Shown in pieces: positions 7,946 to 46,993 of a stretch of DNA of 64,000 nucleotides; the first letter of the stretch is position 1, and each line of letters starts with the position of its first letter. This DNA is from Candidatus Babeliales bacterium (GTDB taxonomy: Bacteria > Babelota > Babeliae > Babelales > JANWKD01). The position numbers and the translations under genes were made by a program. The stretch covers positions 384,001 to 448,000 of the forward strand of contig CAVXJH010000006.1 in the NCBI GenBank assembly GCA_963762115.1, written 5' to 3'. Under the pieces are notes generated by a model. The model saw only the letters and a program-made list of their open reading frames with translations, had not been told where the DNA came from and did not search any database.

Positions 7946-9184
7946 TTAAAAAAACTCCGATACCCATGATTTCATCCGCCCTATAATGCGTGAAGCAAGG
8001 GGACCGGTGAATCTGTTAATGGAAGTAGTATCCTGTTTTTTTAATGCATGAAGCAAGAGTCCGTAACCAGTTGCATACATTGGATTTTGTAAAAAGGGTG
8101 AAAATGTTGATTGTGTATGGGGAATTCCAATGCGCACGGGCATATTAAAAATGTTTGTTGCGAGTGATTGCATGCCTTTAAGAAGTGCTCCACCGCCGGT
8201 CAGCACAAAGCCACTTGGCATGAAAGAGTAAAGAGAATGTTTTTTGCATTCTTTATCAATGAATCTGAAGAGTTCTTGTGCGCGTGGTTGTAAAATAGCT
8301 AAAAGTTCGCTTTGTAAAATTAATTGTGTTGATTGTTCACTAATGCTTGCCAGTTCTATGCAGGTATCTTCACCTAATAAGTTTGGATCAACAATACCAT
8401 ATTCTTTTTTTATTTCTTCAGCAGCTTTAATTGTTGTTCTCAATCCTATTGCAATATCTTTGGTGAAATGATTGCCAGCAATTGGTAAAACCATGGTATG
8501 CCTAATAGTGCCTTTGTGATAGATTGCCAGATCAGAAGTGCCACCGCCGATATCAAGCATCCCAACACCGAGTAGTTTTTCGTCATCGGTTAATACGGCA
8601 TCGGCAGAAGCAAGTTGCTCTAATACAATATCATTGACGGTGATGCCTGCAGATTCACAACATTTAACTAAATTGTGCACTGAGGCAACTGATCCGGTGA
8701 TGATATGAACATGTGCTTCCAGTCTGACCCCAAACATGCCAAGAGGGTCAACGACTTTTTCATGGGAATCTATAATAAAAAATTGTGGCAACACATGAAG
8801 GATCTGTTGTCCTTCGGGTAAGGCAACGGCGCGAGCTGCCATTGTTGCTTGTATAATATCATAGTTTCTTATTTCACCGCGATTAATTGGTACCATGCCA
8901 CTAGAATTACGTGATTGAATATGTGCACCCGAAATGCCAATGGTGGCTTGTTGAATGGCGCAGCCTGACATTAATTCTGCTTCGCGTAAGGCATTTTTTA
9001 TTGAATGCACTGTTTTTGCTACATCGACAACAACACCTTTTTCTAGACCTTCTGAAGGTGCTTTGCCAATGCCAATTAATTCAAACGAATCATTGCTCAT
9101 TATTTGAGCAACTAAAACACAAATTTTTGTAGTGCCAATATCAAGTGCAACCAATAATTGGTCAGGATGAATAGATTGTTTCAT
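7946..9184 (-). CDS. ftsA: Cell division protein FtsA
   Basis: LDIGTTKI, DIGGGTSD, VLTGGG, C-terminal amphipathic helix; upstream of ftsZ. Confidence 0.96.
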   Translation of the reverse strand: MKQSIHPDQLLVALDIGTTKICVLVAQIMSNDSFELIGIGKAPSEGLEKGVVVDVAKTVHSIKNALREAELMSGCAIQQATIGISGAHIQSRNSSGMVPINRGEIRNYDIIQATMAARAVALPEGQQILHVLPQFFIIDSHEKVVDPLGMFGVRLEAHVHIITGSVASVHNLVKCCESAGITVNDIVLEQLASADAVLTDDEKLLGVGMLDIGGGTSDLAIYHKGTIRHTMVLPIAGNHFTKDIAIGLRTTIKAAEEIKKEYGIVDPNLLGEDTCIELASISEQSTQLILQSELLAILQPRAQELFRFIDKECKKHSLYSFMPSGFVLTGGGALLKGMQSLATNIFNMPVRIGIPHTQSTFSPFLQNPMYATGYGLLLHALKKQDTTSINRFTGPLASRIIGRMKSWVSEFF

Positions 9185-9957
9185 GCTACCCCCTCGTGCA
9201 TTGTATGCACTATAAATTGATTTTTAAAGCGTATATCAACGCCCCATTTTTTTTGTTCTTTTTGATTTTTTTGTGTGTGCTGCGTGAAAAGTTGATTTTT
9301 TATACTATTGCATTGGCTAAAGCAGGGATGTGAGGGATTTTTTGCCGCGTGTGTAATAATGCAAAAATTGGGTACTGATTTATCGCATAATTGAATGCGC
9401 GTATGATCAATCCAACGAATGGTATAAAGAGCAAATAATTCTGAAGAACAATTTTCAAGCCACCGTTTTAGGTGAAAAGCAAACTTTTTTGAACTAATTT
9501 TTTCTTTTTCTTCAACAAGTATAGTTGGTAATTCTTGGATTACTGTTTGTTGAAAGATGGTTGTTGAAGCTATGGCGCCATTTTCAAGCATAACGTGTTG
9601 ATCATTAATGCGAATAATAGGATTTAGGGTTCTTAGCGAAATATGCACATAGCCGGGGCTGATGTAACGAGCATTCACCGCACCCAAAAAATCAAAATGA
9701 GATTTTAGTGTGGTGAGCGAATGTTCATCAAAAATTGTATGTAACACATTTTCATGGGCATAGGTGTTAATTTCTGTATTGGTTTTTTCGGAACAAAGAG
9801 AATCAAGAGTAATCGTGTAGCGCTGAGTCACAAAAAGATAGTGCCAACAATGCCAAAGCCCACTGGCAATCATGATGGCAAGAAAAAAATAAACAAGAAG
9901 ATGCTTCTTGCTAACAACTATTTTTTGTAAGCAGTTTGCTGCAGCAGACATCTTCAT
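9181..9957 (-). CDS. ftsQ: Divergent FtsQ/DivIB-like bitopic membrane protein
   Basis: Single TM, POTRA-like region, C-terminal VDIRFKNQFIV; ATGA overlap with ftsA. Confidence 0.7.
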   Translation of the reverse strand: MKMSAAANCLQKIVVSKKHLLVYFFLAIMIASGLWHCWHYLFVTQRYTITLDSLCSEKTNTEINTYAHENVLHTIFDEHSLTTLKSHFDFLGAVNARYISPGYVHISLRTLNPIIRINDQHVMLENGAIASTTIFQQTVIQELPTILVEEKEKISSKKFAFHLKRWLENCSSELFALYTIRWIDHTRIQLCDKSVPNFCIITHAAKNPSHPCFSQCNSIKNQLFTQHTQKNQKEQKKWGVDIRFKNQFIVHTMHEGVA

Positions 9958-10143
9958 ATTCTCCCCCTAGAATCTGTCCCTGAATTGATAATGAGTAAAA
10001 GAATATTCCTAAACAATACTCTTTTCTATAATTATTAACTTTTTGTCATTAGAAAAGTCAACAATTATGAAGTTTTTTTTAATATGATTATAGTTGTTAA
10101 ATTTAATAACATATATTTTTACGAGAGCTGGGATAGAAAGGTA

Positions 10144-10196
10144 TGTCATTGCGAGGCACATTGTGCCGTGGCAACCCAGCTTATGAAATTCTTTTT
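10144..10196 (+). repeat. Module A palindromic arm
   Basis: TGTCATTGCGAGGCACATTGTGCCGTGGCAACCCAGCTTATGAAATTCTTTTT. Confidence 0.85.
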
Positions 10197-10336
10197 ATTT
10201 TTCCAATTTAAGATCGAATTTTTTTATTTTTAATATCATTCGGCCCTATGCGGGCAGCACAAAGGTATTGTTTGCCCAATACCTTTGATACAAGGGCCCC
10301 AACGTTCCGTTGGATCAAATCTCCCGCGCGTATATG

Positions 10337-11798
10337 CTACTCTTTACCCACATTTTTACTATAATTAACGAGATACAGAATTAATATATCAAAAAAAGAA
10401 AAGTAAAAAATGATTAAAGAATTGTGGGCAGCAAATGAAACTAATCGTATGTCATTAAAAGATAAACGCAGAAATGAAAGAGTTAGAATACTTCTAGAGG
10501 CAGTTGCCGATAGCCCATCAGCAAGCATTTTACAAGCTTGCAACGGAGAAAATGCACAAGCAAAAGGTGCTTACCGTTTTCTTGCCACAACAGAAATTGA
10601 TGAACAAGATATTCTCGAAGGACATTATCAAGCAACCGTCGAAAGAGCTGAAAATGCTGATGGAAAAGTCATTATCGTTAGCGATGGCATGGATGCATCT
10701 TTTAAGAATCTTAAAAAAACTGAGGGACTAGGAACTCTCTCTAATTCAAAAACTTCACTTGGAATAAAGGTTCAAAATACCTATGTATTTAGTGAAAATT
10801 TTATTCCATTAGGTTTAATAAATCAAAAATATTGGGTACGTAATAAAGAAGATTATGGCAAAAAAAAACATAGGCTAAGGCTGCCTACAATAGAAAAAGA
10901 ATCTTATAATTGGGTTGAATCAATTTATCAAATAGAAAAAAAGCTTTCCTTAAATAAAAGCTATCTATTTATAGGTGATGGTGGTGCAGATATTTATGAT
11001 TTACTGATAGCAGAAAGGCGTGTAAATAGCGATTTACTCATTCATCTTGTGCAGAACAGAAATATACAGAATGAGAAGGAGCGTCTTTTTGAATTACTGG
11101 AAAAACAATCAGTACTAGGCGTTATAACGAAAGAATTAGAACGTACAAAAACTCATTCTAAGAGAACTGCAAAATTAGCAATTAGAGTCAAAGAAGTTGA
11201 AATTTGTCCTCCTCTTAATCGAAAAGACAAAAAATTATCAACCATAAATTTAACAGCAATTTATGTACAAGAAATAGAAAATGACAAAACAATAAATGAT
11301 CCAATAGTATGGCGACTTATTACTACGATTAAAATTCAATCATTGGAAGAAGCTGAAAAGCTTATTGCTCTTTACTCAAAACGTTGGCTCATTGAACGTT
11401 ATCACTATATTTTAAAAGAAGGTTGTCGAATAGAAAAATTTCAAATGGAATCGGTTGATAATCTAAAAAGAACCTTAGCTGTTTACTCAATTGCTGCTTG
11501 GCGTTTAATTTATATCACTTATCTTGCAAGAATTAAACCTGATGCCCCATGTAATTTAATTCTTACAATCGATGAAGCTGATGCGTTATATTGCACACAT
11601 CATAAAACTCTTACATTGCCCCCCAAATCTTTTTCTGTTAAAGAAGCAACTCAAATGATAGCAAAATTAGGAGGTTTTCTTGGCAGAAAAAATGATAAGG
11701 ATCCTGGTGCAAAAGTTTTGTGGCAGGGACTATTTCGGCTAGAAGCCATCACACAAGCTTATCTTTTATTTAAAGAACTAAATGTGGGTAAAGGGTAG
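10337..11798 (+). mobile_element. IS4-family insertion sequence (Tn5/IS50-like transposase), 1462 bp, apparently intact
   Basis: 19-bp TIRs CTACTCTTTACCCACATTT / AAATGTGGGTAAAGGGTAG (1 mismatch); 10-bp TSD CGCGTATATG at 10327-10336 and 11799-11808. Confidence 0.95.
10410..11798 (+). CDS. IS4-family DDE transposase
   Basis: Tn5-like N-terminus (LKDKRRNERV, KGAYRFL), VSDG, IGDGGAD, YSKRWLIERYHYILK, LGGFLGRKNDKDPG; stop codon lies inside the right TIR. Confidence 0.95.
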   Translation: MIKELWAANETNRMSLKDKRRNERVRILLEAVADSPSASILQACNGENAQAKGAYRFLATTEIDEQDILEGHYQATVERAENADGKVIIVSDGMDASFKNLKKTEGLGTLSNSKTSLGIKVQNTYVFSENFIPLGLINQKYWVRNKEDYGKKKHRLRLPTIEKESYNWVESIYQIEKKLSLNKSYLFIGDGGADIYDLLIAERRVNSDLLIHLVQNRNIQNEKERLFELLEKQSVLGVITKELERTKTHSKRTAKLAIRVKEVEICPPLNRKDKKLSTINLTAIYVQEIENDKTINDPIVWRLITTIKIQSLEEAEKLIALYSKRWLIERYHYILKEGCRIEKFQMESVDNLKRTLAVYSIAAWRLIYITYLARIKPDAPCNLILTIDEADALYCTHHKTLTLPPKSFSVKEATQMIAKLGGFLGRKNDKDPGAKVLWQGLFRLEAITQAYLLFKELNVGKG

Positions 11799-11947
11799 CG
11801 CGTATATGCACCACACATCATGATGCTGCGCATCATTCTTTCGGGTGCACAACGCACTACCGGACTAACTTATTTATAAATTTTTTATTGTGTGACTTCT
11901 CTAAATAACGTGAACTTGATGTTCAAAATGAGCAAAATAATCACCGC

Positions 11948-11995
11948 TGTCATTGCGAGCGCATGCGTGGCAACCCAGCTTATAAAATTCTTTTT
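11948..11995 (+). repeat. Module A palindromic arm (shorter inner hairpin)
   Basis: TGTCATTGCGAGCGCATGCGTGGCAACCCAGCTTATAAAATTCTTTTT, abutting the Sel1 gene stop. Confidence 0.85.
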
Positions 11996-11997
11996 AT

Positions 11998-12792
11998 TTA
12001 AATCTTCGAATCAGTTTCTTTAAAGTTCTGATTATTAGTAATCGAGTTGCAAATTGTTGTACTATTTCTTTCATCTTGATAAATAGTATCTAATTTCTTT
12101 TGTGCCAAAAGATAATTTTTTGCAGCCGCAAGTGAATAATAATGTTTTGCTTTTTCTATATCGCCTATATTTTGATAATACTCCCAAAGAGCAAATAAAG
12201 CTGAAGTTTCACCTTGATTAGCAGCAAGTGAATAATTACGTATTGCTTCTTCTATATTTCCCTCTTTGAAATTAAGCACCCCTAAATTATATTGTCCAAT
12301 AGGATAACCTTGATTAGCAGCAAGGGAATAATAATGCTTCGCTTTTTCTGTATCCCCTTTTTGAGAATACAGTATTCCTTGGTTAACTTGACACCATGGA
12401 TCATTTGGGTCGAGTGTAAAATAATCAGCATCATCATTGTCAAAAAGAGGTTCTACTGATCTCCAAATTAGCCATGCAGTAAGTGCAGTAAATACCACCC
12501 CAAAATTACGCTTATTAATTAAATTAACTTGATTTGATGCCGTAGTTACGATAGTTGAAGTAATCGGATTTTGGCTCAATGATTTATTTCTTTGATTCGT
12601 CGCAAAAATTTCTTTTTTTGTTAAGTACTCGTTTGAGTGTATTGAAGATAGTGGTAAAGTATGGCGAAGCAATGCTGGTCGAAAGTTGCTTTTAAGGGAG
12701 GATTTAGTGACATCTTTTGATTTATGCATAGCATCTAACTGCTCAGAAATCAAAAAAATTACAGTAAGTAAAAAAAACAACCTTCTTTTCAT
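11998..12792 (-). CDS. Secreted Sel1-repeat protein (LDA-MH motif) with an internal TM segment
   Basis: Three repeats such as EKAKHYYSLAANQG and GQYNLGVL; N-terminal signal peptide. Confidence 0.85.
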   Translation of the reverse strand: MKRRLFFLLTVIFLISEQLDAMHKSKDVTKSSLKSNFRPALLRHTLPLSSIHSNEYLTKKEIFATNQRNKSLSQNPITSTIVTTASNQVNLINKRNFGVVFTALTAWLIWRSVEPLFDNDDADYFTLDPNDPWCQVNQGILYSQKGDTEKAKHYYSLAANQGYPIGQYNLGVLNFKEGNIEEAIRNYSLAANQGETSALFALWEYYQNIGDIEKAKHYYSLAAAKNYLLAQKKLDTIYQDERNSTTICNSITNNQNFKETDSKI

Positions 12793-12922
12793 TTAAACTC
12801 CTGAAGAATTAATTTGACATAATATTGTTTGTAAATATTTTTTAATATAAAGCGCGTTCAGATTATAATCATATACGGCTAATTTGCAAGATATTAGTCT
12901 GAATCTAAGATTGAATCTATTA

Positions 12923-13087
12923 ATAAATAAGTTAGTCCGGTAGTGCGTTGTGCACCCGAAAGAATGATGCGCAGCATCATGATGTGTGGTGCATATACGC
13001 GCGGGAAAATGATCCAACGGAACGTTGGTGCCCTTGTATCAAATGTATTGGGCACGCAATACATTTGTGCTTGGCCCGCATAGGGCC
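12923..13087. repeat. Structured repeat (modules C+B), copy 2, uninterrupted, inverted relative to copy 1
   Basis: ATAAATAAGTTAGTCCGGTAGTGCGTTGTGCACC...GGTGCATATACGCGCGGG...GCCCGCATAGGGCC. Confidence 0.9.
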
Positions 13088-13147
13088 TATTTTTTATAAA
13101 TATTTATTTGCAAATCAACTTGATGTTAATCCTGCAGCAGTAGCTTT

Positions 13148-13879
13148 CTATGCTTGTGATTGGCTGATAATAAACAACAAAATCCCAGCAGCAACAGAAG
13201 CATTATAGGAAATATCAGGTGAGCGTTGAGGTAAGGTAATGAGTGTGCCTGTGTTATGAATTTCACGAGAAATTCCTAAAGCCTCACTGCCAATAACCAA
13301 ACACAACGGTTTTTGATACTGAACCTGTGTAGCATTTTTGCCGTTATCAACAACTGATAAATATATTGAATACCCAGCTTTTTTTAATTCTTGAGCAGCC
13401 ATGGAAGCTGAAGGGGCCATATAAATTTCCACATGTTCAGCAAGCCCTGCAGAGGATTTGATGGCACTTGCATTGAGCGGTGCACCATGTTTGGTGATCA
13501 TAATAACGCCATCAACACCGGTGCAATACCCTGAACGCAAAATTGCCCCTAAATTCCTGACATCTTGGATGCCATCAAGCATAAGAAGGAATTTTTCTCG
13601 TGTTGGATCAAAGAACTTTTTGCGGATGACAAAAGGTGAGGCATAGGCAACGATGCCTTGATGATCGGTGGTGTTTGCCAATTTATGCAAAACTTCACGA
13701 TCAACATATTGAATCTGTATGCCTTTTGGGAGGAGTTTTTCTATCTCCTGAAAGCCTTTTGGTGTTGGTCTTGTAGTGTATAAGATGACCAAACGACGTC
13801 TTTTTGCCTTGAGGAGCTCTAAAATGGGGTGAATGCCAAAAATAAGTTCATTATCTTTGTATTGTATTTGTTTTTTCAT
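13148..13879 (-). CDS. rlmB: TrmH/SpoU-family RNA 2'-O-methyltransferase, RlmB-like
   Basis: IFGIHPI, HQGIVA, LDGIQDVRNLGAILRS, VIGSEALG, SYNASVAAGI. Confidence 0.88.
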   Translation of the reverse strand: MKKQIQYKDNELIFGIHPILELLKAKRRRLVILYTTRPTPKGFQEIEKLLPKGIQIQYVDREVLHKLANTTDHQGIVAYASPFVIRKKFFDPTREKFLLMLDGIQDVRNLGAILRSGYCTGVDGVIMITKHGAPLNASAIKSSAGLAEHVEIYMAPSASMAAQELKKAGYSIYLSVVDNGKNATQVQYQKPLCLVIGSEALGISREIHNTGTLITLPQRSPDISYNASVAAGILLFIISQSQA

Positions 13880-14071
13880 AGGTATAAGTATATAAAATAC
13901 TGATCAAATAAGCAAAACATAGTAAATTTTCTTTATAGAGGTTTTTTATGGGTATTTGTCGAATTTTTATAAAAATGCAAGGTATGTCCCATTGAAAATG
14001 ATGTGCTATTTTGTTACCATTATCTAGTAAGAAAAAATATAATAATTATTCCTTTTGCAAAGGAGGATTTT

Positions 14072-14680
14072 ATGCAAAAACAAATTCACTTTTCAACAAA
14101 AGTTTTAATGCTTATCGCTTCTTTGATGGGCACACAAATGGTGCGTTCAGATTTTGGTCTTGATGGTGCGTTGCAAGAGATGACGCGTTCTGTTGAAAAA
14201 ATTCAAAAGAAGTTCACCAAAATAAACAACTCAATGCATACAAGCATGAATAATTTTATGCAAGGAGCTTTTTCAGCGCAAGTTGGCACGCTTACTATTG
14301 CAACGCAAGATGCTCATGTTGTTATTACGGTTGCTATGAACGATCTTGATAAAGATTCAATTAAGGCAGTAGTTCATAATAATGTCTTAACCATTAATGC
14401 GCGCAATAAGCAAACTGAAATGGAACTTGTTGTTGATGCTCATTCGGCAAAATTGAATATGCAGCAAAAAGTTGAAGTGGCATCAGAAGAAGTGGATAAG
14501 AATGGCGATAAGAAATCTTCACGTGTTTCTTTTAGTTCACAACAAAATAGGCAATCGTTACCTGTTGAAGTTGGCCTTAGTGATGTTGCTGTTGAATATG
14601 AAAATGGTGTTTTAACCGTTAAGCTTTCTCGTGTTGAGCCGGTTGTTTCGCCAAAAGTTATTCAAGTAATTAAGAAATAA
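14072..14680 (+). CDS. Hsp20/alpha-crystallin family protein with an N-terminal signal peptide
   Basis: AGGAGG RBS; DKDSIKAVVHNNVLTI and AVEYENGVLTVKL...KVIQVI. Confidence 0.75.
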   Translation: MQKQIHFSTKVLMLIASLMGTQMVRSDFGLDGALQEMTRSVEKIQKKFTKINNSMHTSMNNFMQGAFSAQVGTLTIATQDAHVVITVAMNDLDKDSIKAVVHNNVLTINARNKQTEMELVVDAHSAKLNMQQKVEVASEEVDKNGDKKSSRVSFSSQQNRQSLPVEVGLSDVAVEYENGVLTVKLSRVEPVVSPKVIQVIKK

Positions 14681-14710
14681 TCAAAAAAATAATGTGTAGG
14701 GACTGCATTA

Positions 14711-15376
14711 ATGTATATTCTTGAAGGCAATATTGGTGCAGGTAAATCAACCTTTTTAAAATTGCTTGCACAAAATATTTCAGCTATTTCCGTTGGATTT
14801 GAACCGTTGCATAATTGGCAAAGTAAGGTGCATGGGCAATCTTTATTGAGCAATTTCTATGAAAAGCCACAGCGATGGGCTTATAGCCTTGAGACCTTTG
14901 CTATGATTTGCCGTGTTTATGAACATCTCAAAGATCAAGAATATGAACATGATATTATTATTGAACGTTCAATTTATTCGGGCCATTATGTTTTTGCGGT
15001 TAATGGGTATGAACAAGGTTTTATGAGTGATATTGAATGGCATATGTATAATCAATGGTTTAATGCACTCGTCTCAACACATTGCAAAAAACCTCAAGGG
15101 TTCATCTATTTGCGCGTTGATCCTGCTATTGCCTATAAACGAATTAAGAAACGGAATCGTTTAGCGGAAAAAAAAATTACCTTGGCGTATCTTAAACAAA
15201 TTCATGCATGCCATGAAAAGTTTTTACGAGAAAAAGTTGGTATTTTGTCTGAACTTACTTCTGTCCCTGTTTTGATACTCGATTGTAACGAAGATTTTGA
15301 GAATGATGAACGTGTTTTACAATCACATCTTGATCTTGTCAAAGATTTTGTTATAAAAAGTAATCTTATAGTTTAG
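14711..15376 (+). CDS. Deoxynucleoside kinase (dAK/dGK family)
   Basis: EGNIGAGKST P-loop, ERSIYS, IYLRVDP...RIKKRNR lid. Confidence 0.92.
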   Translation: MYILEGNIGAGKSTFLKLLAQNISAISVGFEPLHNWQSKVHGQSLLSNFYEKPQRWAYSLETFAMICRVYEHLKDQEYEHDIIIERSIYSGHYVFAVNGYEQGFMSDIEWHMYNQWFNALVSTHCKKPQGFIYLRVDPAIAYKRIKKRNRLAEKKITLAYLKQIHACHEKFLREKVGILSELTSVPVLILDCNEDFENDERVLQSHLDLVKDFVIKSNLIV

Positions 15377-19361: not shown

Positions 19362-20143
19362 GGGGGGTTCTCCTTGTTTTTGAACCTGAAAAATAGTAAA
19401 AATATCAATTTTAATATAATTAAATGATAGCATATATATAAAAAATAGCAAGTAGTTAATTTCCTAATTGAAAATAAATCAAGTTGAGTTTTGTGATAAT
19501 AATTTAGAAAGGTTATTTTCCTATGTTTTTTTGAGAAAAAAATCTTAAGGTTAATAACAAGGAAGCAAATGAAGGTAAAAAATTCAATTAGTTAAAAATA
19601 TATAATATTTCATTATGCATATTGATTATATTTTTATATATTTTATACTTATTATTGTCTGATATTGTTAGTTTTTCAGTGTAAGAAGGAAATGCTCGTG
19701 AAAAAATCTATTTTATATGCCTTAATTTTTGGTTTTTGTGTTGGAAATGTGCTCAATGTTTGTGCAATGGAAGAAAAATCAACGGAGACTCTCAATCAAA
19801 AAGAAGCTCCTGAAATAACTGTTGAGGTTGGTTTGGAAAGCCTTGACAGTAAATGGTTTTTTGAAAATCAAAAAAATAAGGATTTTGGTGCTGCGCGAGG
19901 TTCTGTTAGAGCTTTAAATGCTATAAAAAAATATGACAATAACGCGAAATCTGAATATGAGCTTTATCCAAATTCTATTCCAAAGTACAGAGCGCTTAGG
20001 GGAAAATTATGCAGAAAACAAAAAGTATTTGATGCATTTTTTAACATACAAGTTCGAGATGTTCCAGAAGAAAAAAAAGTGATTGCAGCTGGTAGTGCTA
20101 AAATAAAAGAGCGTAGAATAGAATGGGATGCAACTGAATTTAT

Positions 20144-20711
20144 TTCGTATGACAGAAAACCCCAGGGTTTTAAACCTGGGGATGAATGTCATCAAATGCG
20201 CGAGCGAAGCAAAAATGTAAATTTTTGCGAAGTGAGGTTAGTTTTGTCATACTAATTGACATGACAAAGAAATATTGGCACGGAGCGCATACAACTCATA
20301 GGCATATGTATCATATAGTTTGGTTACCTAAATATAGAAAAAAAGTATTAGAAGGCAAAGTTAAGAGCAGGTTAGAAGAACTTTTGCGAGAATGTGCGGA
20401 AATTAATGCATGGGAAATTCAAGAACTAAATATTCAGATAGACCATGTGCATCTTGTAATACAATTACCACCAAGTGTGAGTGTGAGCAAGGCCGTTCAA
20501 TTACTCAAGGGAATTTCAAGTAAAATGCTCAGAGCTGAATTACCTGAAATAAAGAAATTTTTGTGGGGTAACGATTTTTGGGCAGATGGATATTTCTCTG
20601 AAACATTTGGACAATGTTCAGAAGAGACAATTCTCAATTATGTTAGAAATCAATAAAAAGCTTTCATCTCGTGCTTCTAAATCCACGGCTTTTAAGCCGT
20701 GTGTTGTTTAA
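20144..20711 (+). mobile_element. IS200/IS605-family element, tnpA only, 568 bp
   Basis: Left hairpin CCCCAGG...CCTGGGG preceded by AAAA; right hairpin CACGGC...GCCGTG preceded by AAAT; inferred target TTAT and right end TTAA; no TSD. Confidence 0.85.
20261..20656 (+). CDS. tnpA: Y1 HUH transposase TnpA
   Basis: YHIVWLPKYRKKVL, DHVHL (HUH), FWADGYF, ILNYVRNQ (catalytic Tyr). Confidence 0.95.
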   Translation: MTKKYWHGAHTTHRHMYHIVWLPKYRKKVLEGKVKSRLEELLRECAEINAWEIQELNIQIDHVHLVIQLPPSVSVSKAVQLLKGISSKMLRAELPEIKKFLWGNDFWADGYFSETFGQCSEETILNYVRNQ

Positions 20712-20951
20712 TGATGCAATTCTTGAAGAGTTTGTTCTTACTGAAGCATATGAAAAAGGCTTTGATGAGCTTGCAAAAACAGCTCATGCTAAAGAAGTTC
20801 TTGCTGCTGAGCGCAAGCGTAGAGGTTTTTTTAATAAAGATACTTTGATTGGTATAGGTATTGGAGCAACTCCAATGGCAGTAGCAGGGTGCTATTATGC
20901 AGCGAGATATTTTAGGGCGAAGTAAATAAGTTAATTTTTAGAAAATTTATT

Positions 20952-46086: not shown

Positions 46087-46134
46087 TAGTAAAAATCGCA
46101 TTTCTCAAAGCTAAAAAAACATTAATGACAGAAA

Positions 46135-46187
46135 TGTCATTCCGAGGCACATTGTGCCGTGGGAACCCAGCCTATAAAATTCTTTTT
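46135..46187 (+). repeat. Module A palindromic arm
   Basis: TGTCATTCCGAGGCACATTGTGCCGTGGGAACCCAGCCTATAAAATTCTTTTT. Confidence 0.85.
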
Positions 46188-46219
46188 AATTTTTTCATAA
46201 TTTTTTTAAATAAAATCTA

Positions 46220-46456
46220 TCGGCCCTATGCGGGCAGCATCCTCCTACGCTTATCCACGCCTTCCGGCTTGGCAAGCTACAGCGGACAGGCCAACCCTTC
46301 GAAGCTTTAGCGCAGTAGGGCCGCGCGAATATGCACCATTCCATTGTTGATGCCTTCAGCATCAAAATTCCAGGTGCACGTCGCACTACCGGACTAACTT
46401 ATTTATAAAAATTTCACCATGCAACATCTATATTATTCCTGCCCGCATAGGGCCGA
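46220..46456. repeat. 237-bp MITE-like structured repeat, copy 3 (B-variable-C-inverted B)
   Basis: Perfect 18-bp terminal inverted repeat TCGGCCCTATGCGGGCAG / CTGCCCGCATAGGGCCGA; contains CGCACTACCGGACTAACTTATTTAT. Confidence 0.85.
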
Positions 46457-46580
46457 AAGATAGAATTAAAATAAGATAAAATTAGAACTCTTTATTAATT
46501 TGTATTTTTTATTCTTTAAAGAGTTGCTATATTAATATTGGAATAAAATGTATCAAAAAATCAATTTAAGAAAGGTTTAT

Positions 46581-46928
46581 ATGAAATTAATAAAATTTTC
46601 TCTTATGCTTAGTATAAGCTTACTACCTTTATGTATGAAGGGAATGGATGAAAAAAAGTTAATAAAAAGTAATGGACCTGAGAATGCAAAAGCTGGCGTA
46701 TACGCCGTATTAGCACATTTTGATGATTTTAATCGGTATGAAGCTAATGGAAAATATAGTAATCAAGTTAAAGAGTATGCAAGGAAACTTAATAGTGCTC
46801 CTTCGGGATTTGATTATCAAGAATTTGAAACTATCATTCGAAACAAATGGTTTGATTGTGTAGCTGAGATATATGAGGCAAGTACTGATAACGTAAAAAA
46901 TGTAATATATTTAAATGATAAAAAATAG
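46581..46928 (+). CDS. Small secreted orphan (MKG-MD motif)
   Basis: MKLIKFSLMLSISLLPLCMKG-MD. Confidence 0.6.
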   Translation: MKLIKFSLMLSISLLPLCMKGMDEKKLIKSNGPENAKAGVYAVLAHFDDFNRYEANGKYSNQVKEYARKLNSAPSGFDYQEFETIIRNKWFDCVAEIYEASTDNVKNVIYLNDKK

Positions 46929-46954
46929 AAAAATATAATAGCCAAAAATACTGA

Positions 46955-46993
46955 AAATAGAGTGTTCATGAATTATAAGTGGGCACTCTATTT
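46955..46993. terminator. Terminator hairpin
   Basis: AAATAGAGTG...CACTCTATTT between convergent genes. Confidence 0.6.

Follow-up and report, generated by a model that had tools for sequence, protein, structure and literature searches.

A structured, most likely mobile intergenic repeat with a covarying pseudoknot in Babeliales genomes

A 64,000-nucleotide stretch of DNA (herein the window; C6:384001-448000 of G000, a Babeliales metagenome-assembled genome [MAG] of 1,530,897 bp in seven contigs with ~34% GC) carries three copies of a repeat that is real, structured, and without description in the RNA database or the literature that we searched. The repeat family is most likely mobile. Judging from sequence data, we put the chances at about even that the copy at 12923-13090 (+) is a non-autonomous mobile repeat of a REP/REPIN-like kind, one into which transcription would run at gene 3′ ends, as opposed to a free-standing RNA gene. 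Nearly all that is known of the Dependentiae comes from metagenomes, and a search of the literature on repeats in Dependentiae/Babeliales found nothing relevant.

The repeat is 160 to 200 nt long (the tag and hairpin C delimit about 160 nt) and non-coding, and it consists of a 5′ domain followed by a 3′ module (Table 1). The 5′ domain comprises an unpaired UCCGGUAG tag, a long bulged stem (P1) with a variable interior that usually terminates in a 7-bp hairpin, and a GGGAGA linker. The 3′ module is built, in order, of a 6-bp hairpin (B1), five pseudoknot bases, an 11-bp hairpin (B2), and a short GC-rich end hairpin (C). The long stem GTGCG..GTGCACC / GGTGCAT..CGCGC, put forward in an earlier sequence-only reading of the window, is present in the predicted fold; the pairing of TGCCC with GGGCA is interleaved with B2 and therefore forms a pseudoknot. 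The tag ends in GTAG directly 5′ of P1 in 45 of 59 aligned copies from genomes and in 22 of 27 from metagenome contigs; the other tags read ATAG, CTAG, GTAA, GCAG, TTAG, ATAA, or TAAG. A coding reading of the repeat was ruled out by indels between copies and by paired changes in the stems.

Table 1. Features of the structured repeat and of the insertion sequence that splits it (window positions unless a contig of G000 is given)
Feature	Position	Strand	Remarks
Matches to 25-mer ATAAATAAGTTAGTCCGGTAGTGCG	12923-12947; 11853-11877; 46382-46406	+; -; -	
Intact repeat copy, 5′ domain and 3′ module	12923..13090	+	R1 12915-13008, 92.5 bits; R2 12999-13089, 76.4 bits
Unpaired tag TCCGGTAG, ending in GTAG, directly 5′ of P1	12936..12943	+	Invariant in 16 G000 copies
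Stem P1, one bulge, enclosing inner hairpin 12964-12980	12943..13002 (12943-12958 with 12985-13002)	+	Predicted fold; 18/21 pairs vary on both sides
Hairpin B1 (CCAACGGAACGTTGG)	13014..13028	+	6/6 pairs vary on both sides; 98.6% of cells paired
Pseudoknot, TGCCC 13029-13033 with GGGCA 13050-13054 in B2 loop	13029..13054	+	4/5 pairs vary on both sides; 90.7% paired
Hairpin B2	13036..13070	+	Predicted fold; 9/11 pairs vary on both sides (helices 3 and 4)
End hairpin C (GGCCCGCATAGGGCC)	13073..13087	+	4/4 pairs vary on both sides; T-run after C in this copy only
IS-split copy, 5′ domain	11792..11885	-	R1 match, 90.1 bits
IS-split copy, 3′ module	10240..10329	-	R2 match, 61.9 bits
Variant copy	46221..46414	-	5′ domain 46317-46414 (R1, 113.2 bits); long B′ hairpin in B1 slot; end hairpin C 46221-46236
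Inverted end hairpin C, 5′ side of variant copy	46441..46456	+	
Tn5-like IS4-family IS, 1463 bp, in 3′ strand of P1	10337..11799	+	Transposase 10410-11798; Pfam Tnp_DNA_bind, DDE_Tnp_1, Dimer_Tnp_Tn5
Tn5-like IS copies	10337-11799; C3:422775-424237; C5:111119-112581; C6:301939-303401		

The 25-mer that the sequence-only reading had called invariant among three copies has three exact matches in the window and 0 in 100 shuffles. The first copy, at 10240-11885 (-), was correctly described as split: a 1463-bp insertion sequence (IS) lies inside it, with the target duplicated on either side. For the third, at 46220-46456 (-), the same 5′ part is there as stated; the middle module differs from that of the other copies. 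A 126-aa ORF without a Pfam match (46548-46928) adjoins this third copy. A further repeat family with a palindromic core, GTCATTGCGAGG...GCAACCCAGC, adjoins structured-repeat copies at 10136-10175, 11941-11985, and 46133-46175, and is also found, in reversed orientation, in the ybeY-mlaD spacer of the congeneric genome G001.

A profile search of the whole of G000, the contigs of which have 31 to 37% GC (34 to 36% for the four large ones), finds 16 copies of the 5′ domain (E 5.6e-15 or better); of the 3′ module, G000 has 19 copies. All 16 copies of the 5′ domain lie between genes, as judged by a simple ORF rule, and have unrelated flanks. The 5′ domain is joined directly to the 3′ module in nine; four are split by the Tn5-like IS; and in three a long B′ hairpin replaces B1, one of these being split by an IS110-family element as well. 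Fourteen of the 16 have a nearest copy within the same genome that is 92 to 99% identical, compared with 73 to 84% for the best match in another genome. Of the 16 copies, 6 have an end hairpin or a 3′ module in inverted orientation on their 5′ side, and the others are without one. Other small repeats and ISs are found nested in the structured repeat. At C3:527560-527980 of G000, a B′-type unit is nested in the B2 loop of one copy with both hairpin arms intact, which indicates that small repeats insert into one another.

To follow the fold beyond the window, we used two covariance models, R1 for the 5′ domain (built from the 16 G000 copies) and R2 for the 3′ module (built from 15 copies of three other genomes). 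The three compensatory changes noted in the window are all present: GCGT/ACGC versus GCGA/TCGC, ATGATGC/GCATCAT versus TTGATGC/GCATCAA in the inner hairpin, and CAAATGTATTG/CAATACATTTG versus CAAAGGTATTG/CAATACCTTTG in the distal hairpin. The sequence-only reading had named covariation in larger alignments as a check, and there the structure held, with 85 to 96% of cells paired as against 64 to 72% after shuffling and 17 to 56% when partners were slid. For the 5′ domain in seven genomes (60 rows, 58 distinct) 86.2% of cells are paired (71.0% shuffled; 20 to 44% slid), and 18 of 21 pairs have changed on both sides. The 3′ module in eight genomes (94 rows, 87 distinct) reaches 95.8% (72.1% shuffled; 33 to 56% slid), with 23 of 26 pairs changed on both sides. 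A set of metagenome copies, drawn from 48 contigs found by a 3′-module pattern and left out of the building of R1, gives 84.9% for the 5′ domain (27 rows; 63.8% shuffled; 17 to 51% slid; 18 of 21 pairs changed on both sides), and the structure also holds on 56 metagenome-contig copies of the 3′ module. None of 500 shuffles matched the observed value on any measure for the 5′ domain in seven genomes; for the 3′ module in eight genomes, 6 of 500 matched the count of changed pairs and none the other measures. The cells tally sequences, not events, and because the alignments were fitted to the models and the genomes are kin, the counts lean toward structure. The pseudoknot occurs with the pair types TGCCC/GGGCA, CGCCC/GGGCG, CACCC/GGGTG, TGTCC/GGACA, and TGTAT/GTACA, and within G000 also as TGCAC/GTGCA and TGCTC/GAGCA.

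The same alignments bear on the strand that folds. A bias of G-U pairs toward the strand read as + at 12923 had been claimed for the long stem; in the predicted fold it does hold G-U pairs at U22-G79 and G28-U72, in addition to G36-U63. On this strand G-U cells outnumber A-C cells by 65:15 in the 3′ module and by 75:54 in the 5′ domain, where 34 of the 54 A-C cells come from one column pair beside the bulge. The excess therefore points to one defined folding strand, that read as + at 12923. The + strand of 12923-13097 has a predicted folding energy of -66.1 kcal/mol (z -4.0) and its complement one of -52.9 kcal/mol (z -3.2).

Among 151 sampled Babeliales genomes, R1 matches 7 (4 to 17 matches each) and R2 matches 19, in seven families besides the genome of the window; outside G000 there are 2 to 28 3′ modules per genome among the matches listed. 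A pattern scan of species-representative genomes located the whole element in G151, a 1.1 Mb MAG with ~53% GC. The GyrB of G151 is 55 to 65% identical to Babeliales GyrB over full-length matches, which makes membership of the Babeliales group likely. (In G005, G007, G023, G040, G043, and G044 the GyrB matches come in two parts within open frames of ~980-1400 aa, which would fit interruption of the gene by an intein or some other insert in several genomes of the Babeliales.) Despite the changed base composition of this 53% GC genome, the tag, the GGGAGA linker, ATCCAAC, GTTGGYGCCCTT, and GCCCGCATAGGGC are kept. The copies in G151 form tandem arrays with periods of roughly 270 to 440 bp and up to seven units in one direction; the arrays are arranged head-to-head, copies on the minus strand lying left of a centre and those on the plus strand right of it, and are found among ordinary genes (e.g., alr, a nucleoside transporter, and gyrB). 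A search of viral contigs with the 3′-module pattern gave 0 matches.

Head-to-head pairs are found in G000 too, at C5:110830(-)/111037(+) and, around genes, at 11885(-)/12915(+) of the window and C6:27735(-)/32014(+), as well as in G001 and in metagenome contigs. Many inverted 3′ modules that seemed solo have a 5′ domain of another kind, placed back to back with the first; such a pair is a foldback of two related elements. By the simple ORF rule, the upstream gene lies on the strand of the element in 11 of 16 copies in G000 and 31 of 41 elsewhere (42 of 57 in total), and 22 of the 41 copies outside G000 lie between convergent genes. Such a bias is consistent with transcription running on from the upstream gene into the element, as PMC3733652 also states for many REPs; the 15 of 57 copies that are antisense to the upstream gene count against a mobile repeat working at 3′ ends.

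The ybeY-mlaD spacer of G001 is without the element and measures 123 bp, versus 910 bp in G000, and one contig of sequencing run X2 joins across 46184-46991 with nine differences in 409 bases on the mlaD side. Neither is a clean empty site, since the small 126-aa ORF is missing from both the G001 spacer and the X2 contig. None was found among the three loci compared with G001, where the differences exceed the element alone, and the contigs of two DNA runs across 9000-15000 were broken at repeats and gave no usable joint. By eye, no target duplication of the element itself was recognised above chance in the AT-rich flanks.

The repeat is itself a target of insertion. All four copies of the Tn5-like IS in G000 (93.6 to 100% identical) lie at one site in P1 (..GCATATACGCGC..), one of them reversed relative to the other three, and 8-10 bp (CATATACG(CG)) are duplicated there; all four hosts belong to a six-copy subfamily (type 2) of the repeat. 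Such single-site target choice is unusually selective for the Tn5 family. The sequence-only reading had overlooked this shared insertion site, as well as the 3′ module with its pseudoknot and how many copies the genome really has. A search for relatives of this IS in five other genomes gave one distant match (29% identity), in G094 and outside the element. An IS110-family element is present in five copies in G000 (e.g., C3:514097-515038), three of which adjoin repeat copies. Two of its junctions were read, and in both the insertion follows ..TCCGCC within a second family of palindromic repeats (B′ type). The window also holds an IS200-type element at about 20150-20710, with tnpA at 20186-20656 and, as end hairpins, CCCCAGGG..CCTGGGG together with CCACGGC..GCCGTG. 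An ORF (19665-20255 and 20671-20925) seems to be interrupted by this element, of which G000 has five copies. No parent IS with the same ends as the repeat was found: the ends of the Tn5-like, IS200, and IS110 elements of G000 all differ from those of the repeat.

Genes that might mobilise the repeat were also sought. The sequence-only reading had suggested a substrate for an HUH or GIY-YIG enzyme. In one form of the HUH proposal the repeat would be a gene-less derivative of an IS200/IS605-type element, or a true REP, and a Y1 HUH transposase, here the resident IS200-type TnpA, would excise and reinsert its folded top strand in single-stranded form. The layout of tag and hairpin, the strand-specific fold, and the resemblance of the head-to-head pairs to REPINs all speak for this. 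Y1_Tnp genes, found in 52 of the 151 genomes, are present in 6 of the 7 that carry the 5′ domain and in 46 of the other 144, an association that is weak because the genomes are kin and four of the six belong to one family. Against it, all HUH genes that we found are tnpA of the IS200 type, present in several copies (in G000 five Y1 genes with identical or nearly identical scores), and in the three elements read, from the window and from G001, the end hairpins resemble no helix of the repeat. No single-copy RAYT gene flanked by the repeat was found among the Y1_Tnp matches of G000, all of which are IS200-type, and no Y1 gene was found in G151 or G094, which carry the element. HUH substrates are also not known to contain a pseudoknot. 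The HUH suggestion is not supported by these results, and we regard the Y1-based reading as very unlikely. G000 holds no TnpB above the cut-off and no reverse transcriptase. An IS110 transposase was rejected as the mobiliser, as it is present in 14 of 151 genomes but in only 2 of the 19 holding the 3′ module; integron attC sites, which resemble the repeat in their one-strand fold and arrays, were set aside as the array units of ~300 bp are without cassettes.

A second question is whether the repeat is an RNA gene. The pseudoknot, the conserved unpaired motifs, and the peripheral helices of variable length look more like those of a functional RNA than like any described REP or MITE, and the copies could be free-standing “sibling” small RNA (sRNA) genes, each with its own promoter just upstream of the tag and an RNA with an unpaired 5′ UCCGGUAG that acts in trans or binds a protein. 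This reading is favoured by the one-strand G-U bias, the covariation of the pseudoknot, the unpaired motifs kept in both 34% and 53% GC genomes, and the fixed positions at which peripheral helices vary in length (the P1 interior; B1 versus B′). Boxes resembling a -10 element (e.g., TATAAA) are most frequent where they begin 8-11 nt upstream of the tag, with matches over these four offsets numbering 53 in 60 copies and 16 in 27, counts in which one copy may figure repeatedly and which are biased because the box columns belong to R1. This AT-rich box is absent in G151, and no sigma-70 -35/-10 pair is conserved across copies; a promoter scan of two copies found none. Nor is there a conserved U-tract terminator, a terminator-like U-tract following hairpin C at one copy only (C at 13073-13087). 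RNA genes that are needed would rarely show a patchy distribution, tandem arrays, or splitting by ISs, and the orientation of the repeat follows that of the upstream gene in 42 of 57 copies. On balance we consider free-standing sRNA genes unlikely. The absence of a known family, for which the sequence-only reading had proposed an Rfam search, is borne out: at the gathering score there are 0 Rfam matches in the window, the element itself gives only a chance miRNA match (E 1.5), and at nine loci of other genomes none falls on the element. A more radical proposal, which strikes us as very unlikely, is that the copies represent a novel class of functional RNA, structured and mobile, e.g., self-processing or guide-type. 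Chemistry or target choice would then be the task of the conserved junction (UCCGGUAG / GGGAGA), the pseudoknot, and the hypervariable interior of the stem; the tandem ~300-nt arrays would serve as multimeric precursors, and homing to the element would be an evolved trait of the Tn5-like IS.

In the reading that we prefer, that of a REP/REPIN-like repeat read through at gene ends, new copies would be made at the DNA level by an enzyme supplied in trans, and the fold would be selected because the sense strand is used single-stranded. In the simplest case the strand would serve as the 3′ end of the upstream gene's transcript, either blocking exonucleases or signalling a stop; the enzyme that spreads the repeat may also recognise this fold as its substrate. 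The family shows that the REP-like repeats of small, reduced Dependentiae genomes can greatly exceed the classical ones in complexity, and a covarying pseudoknot without a recognisable transposase raises the questions of how such repeats spread and why the fold is kept. Should the fold prove to act in RNA, it would represent a previously undescribed 3′-end or regulatory motif of bacteria. In practical terms, covariance models like R1 and R2 could allow annotators to mask or label repeats that break assemblies and mimic RNA genes, and the Tn5-like IS could be studied as a site-specific DDE transposase.

Comparison with known systems places the repeat near several of them. With multi-copy “sibling” small RNAs the repeat shares several structured, almost identical copies and a single-stranded 5′ stretch that is conserved; in contrast, no conserved promoter or terminator was seen, and its copies occur in arrays, in inverted pairs, and split by ISs. 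With gene-less derivatives of IS200/IS605 elements (PATEs) it has in common strand-specific hairpins and a conserved motif 5′ of the hairpin, although its hairpins are unrelated to the resident IS200 ends and G000 gave no TnpB above the cut-off. Bacterial MITEs include Correia/CREE, ERIC, and RUP. Like these, the repeat is non-coding, dispersed, similar within a genome, and nested with other repeats, and some copies are bounded by inverted end modules; in contrast to them, no parent IS was found for it, no target duplication was recognised by eye, its ends are fuzzy, and its structure, pseudoknot included, is kept across families by compensatory change.

The closest likeness is to REP/BIME/REPIN elements. 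REPs bear an unpaired GTAG or CGTC tag at one end of the palindrome and are found between co-directional or convergent genes. Those with a GTAG tag are thought to be mobilised by RAYT Y1 transposases, and for our repeat no cognate RAYT gene was found. It is 160 to 200 nt long, with four helices and a pseudoknot, whereas REPs are single hairpins of 20-40 bp; this four- to eightfold difference in length counts against a REP-like reading. Its copies number 4 to about 30 per genome, while REPs often exceed 100. The resemblance to REPINs claimed from the window is nevertheless apparent in the unpaired GTAG tag, the head-to-head pairs, and the clusters: the repeat is intergenic and multi-copy, with GTAG unpaired beside an imperfect palindrome, and it forms inverted dimers and clusters, lies mostly downstream of genes, and serves as a landing site for ISs. 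PMC3733652 describes REPs as carrying an unpaired GTAG tag, lying mostly downstream of genes, forming inverted dimers, and being plausibly transcribed, and PMC1525189 describes them as targets of ISs. Therefore, while set apart from REP/BIME/REPIN elements by its size, its copy number, and the RAYT search, the repeat is akin to them.
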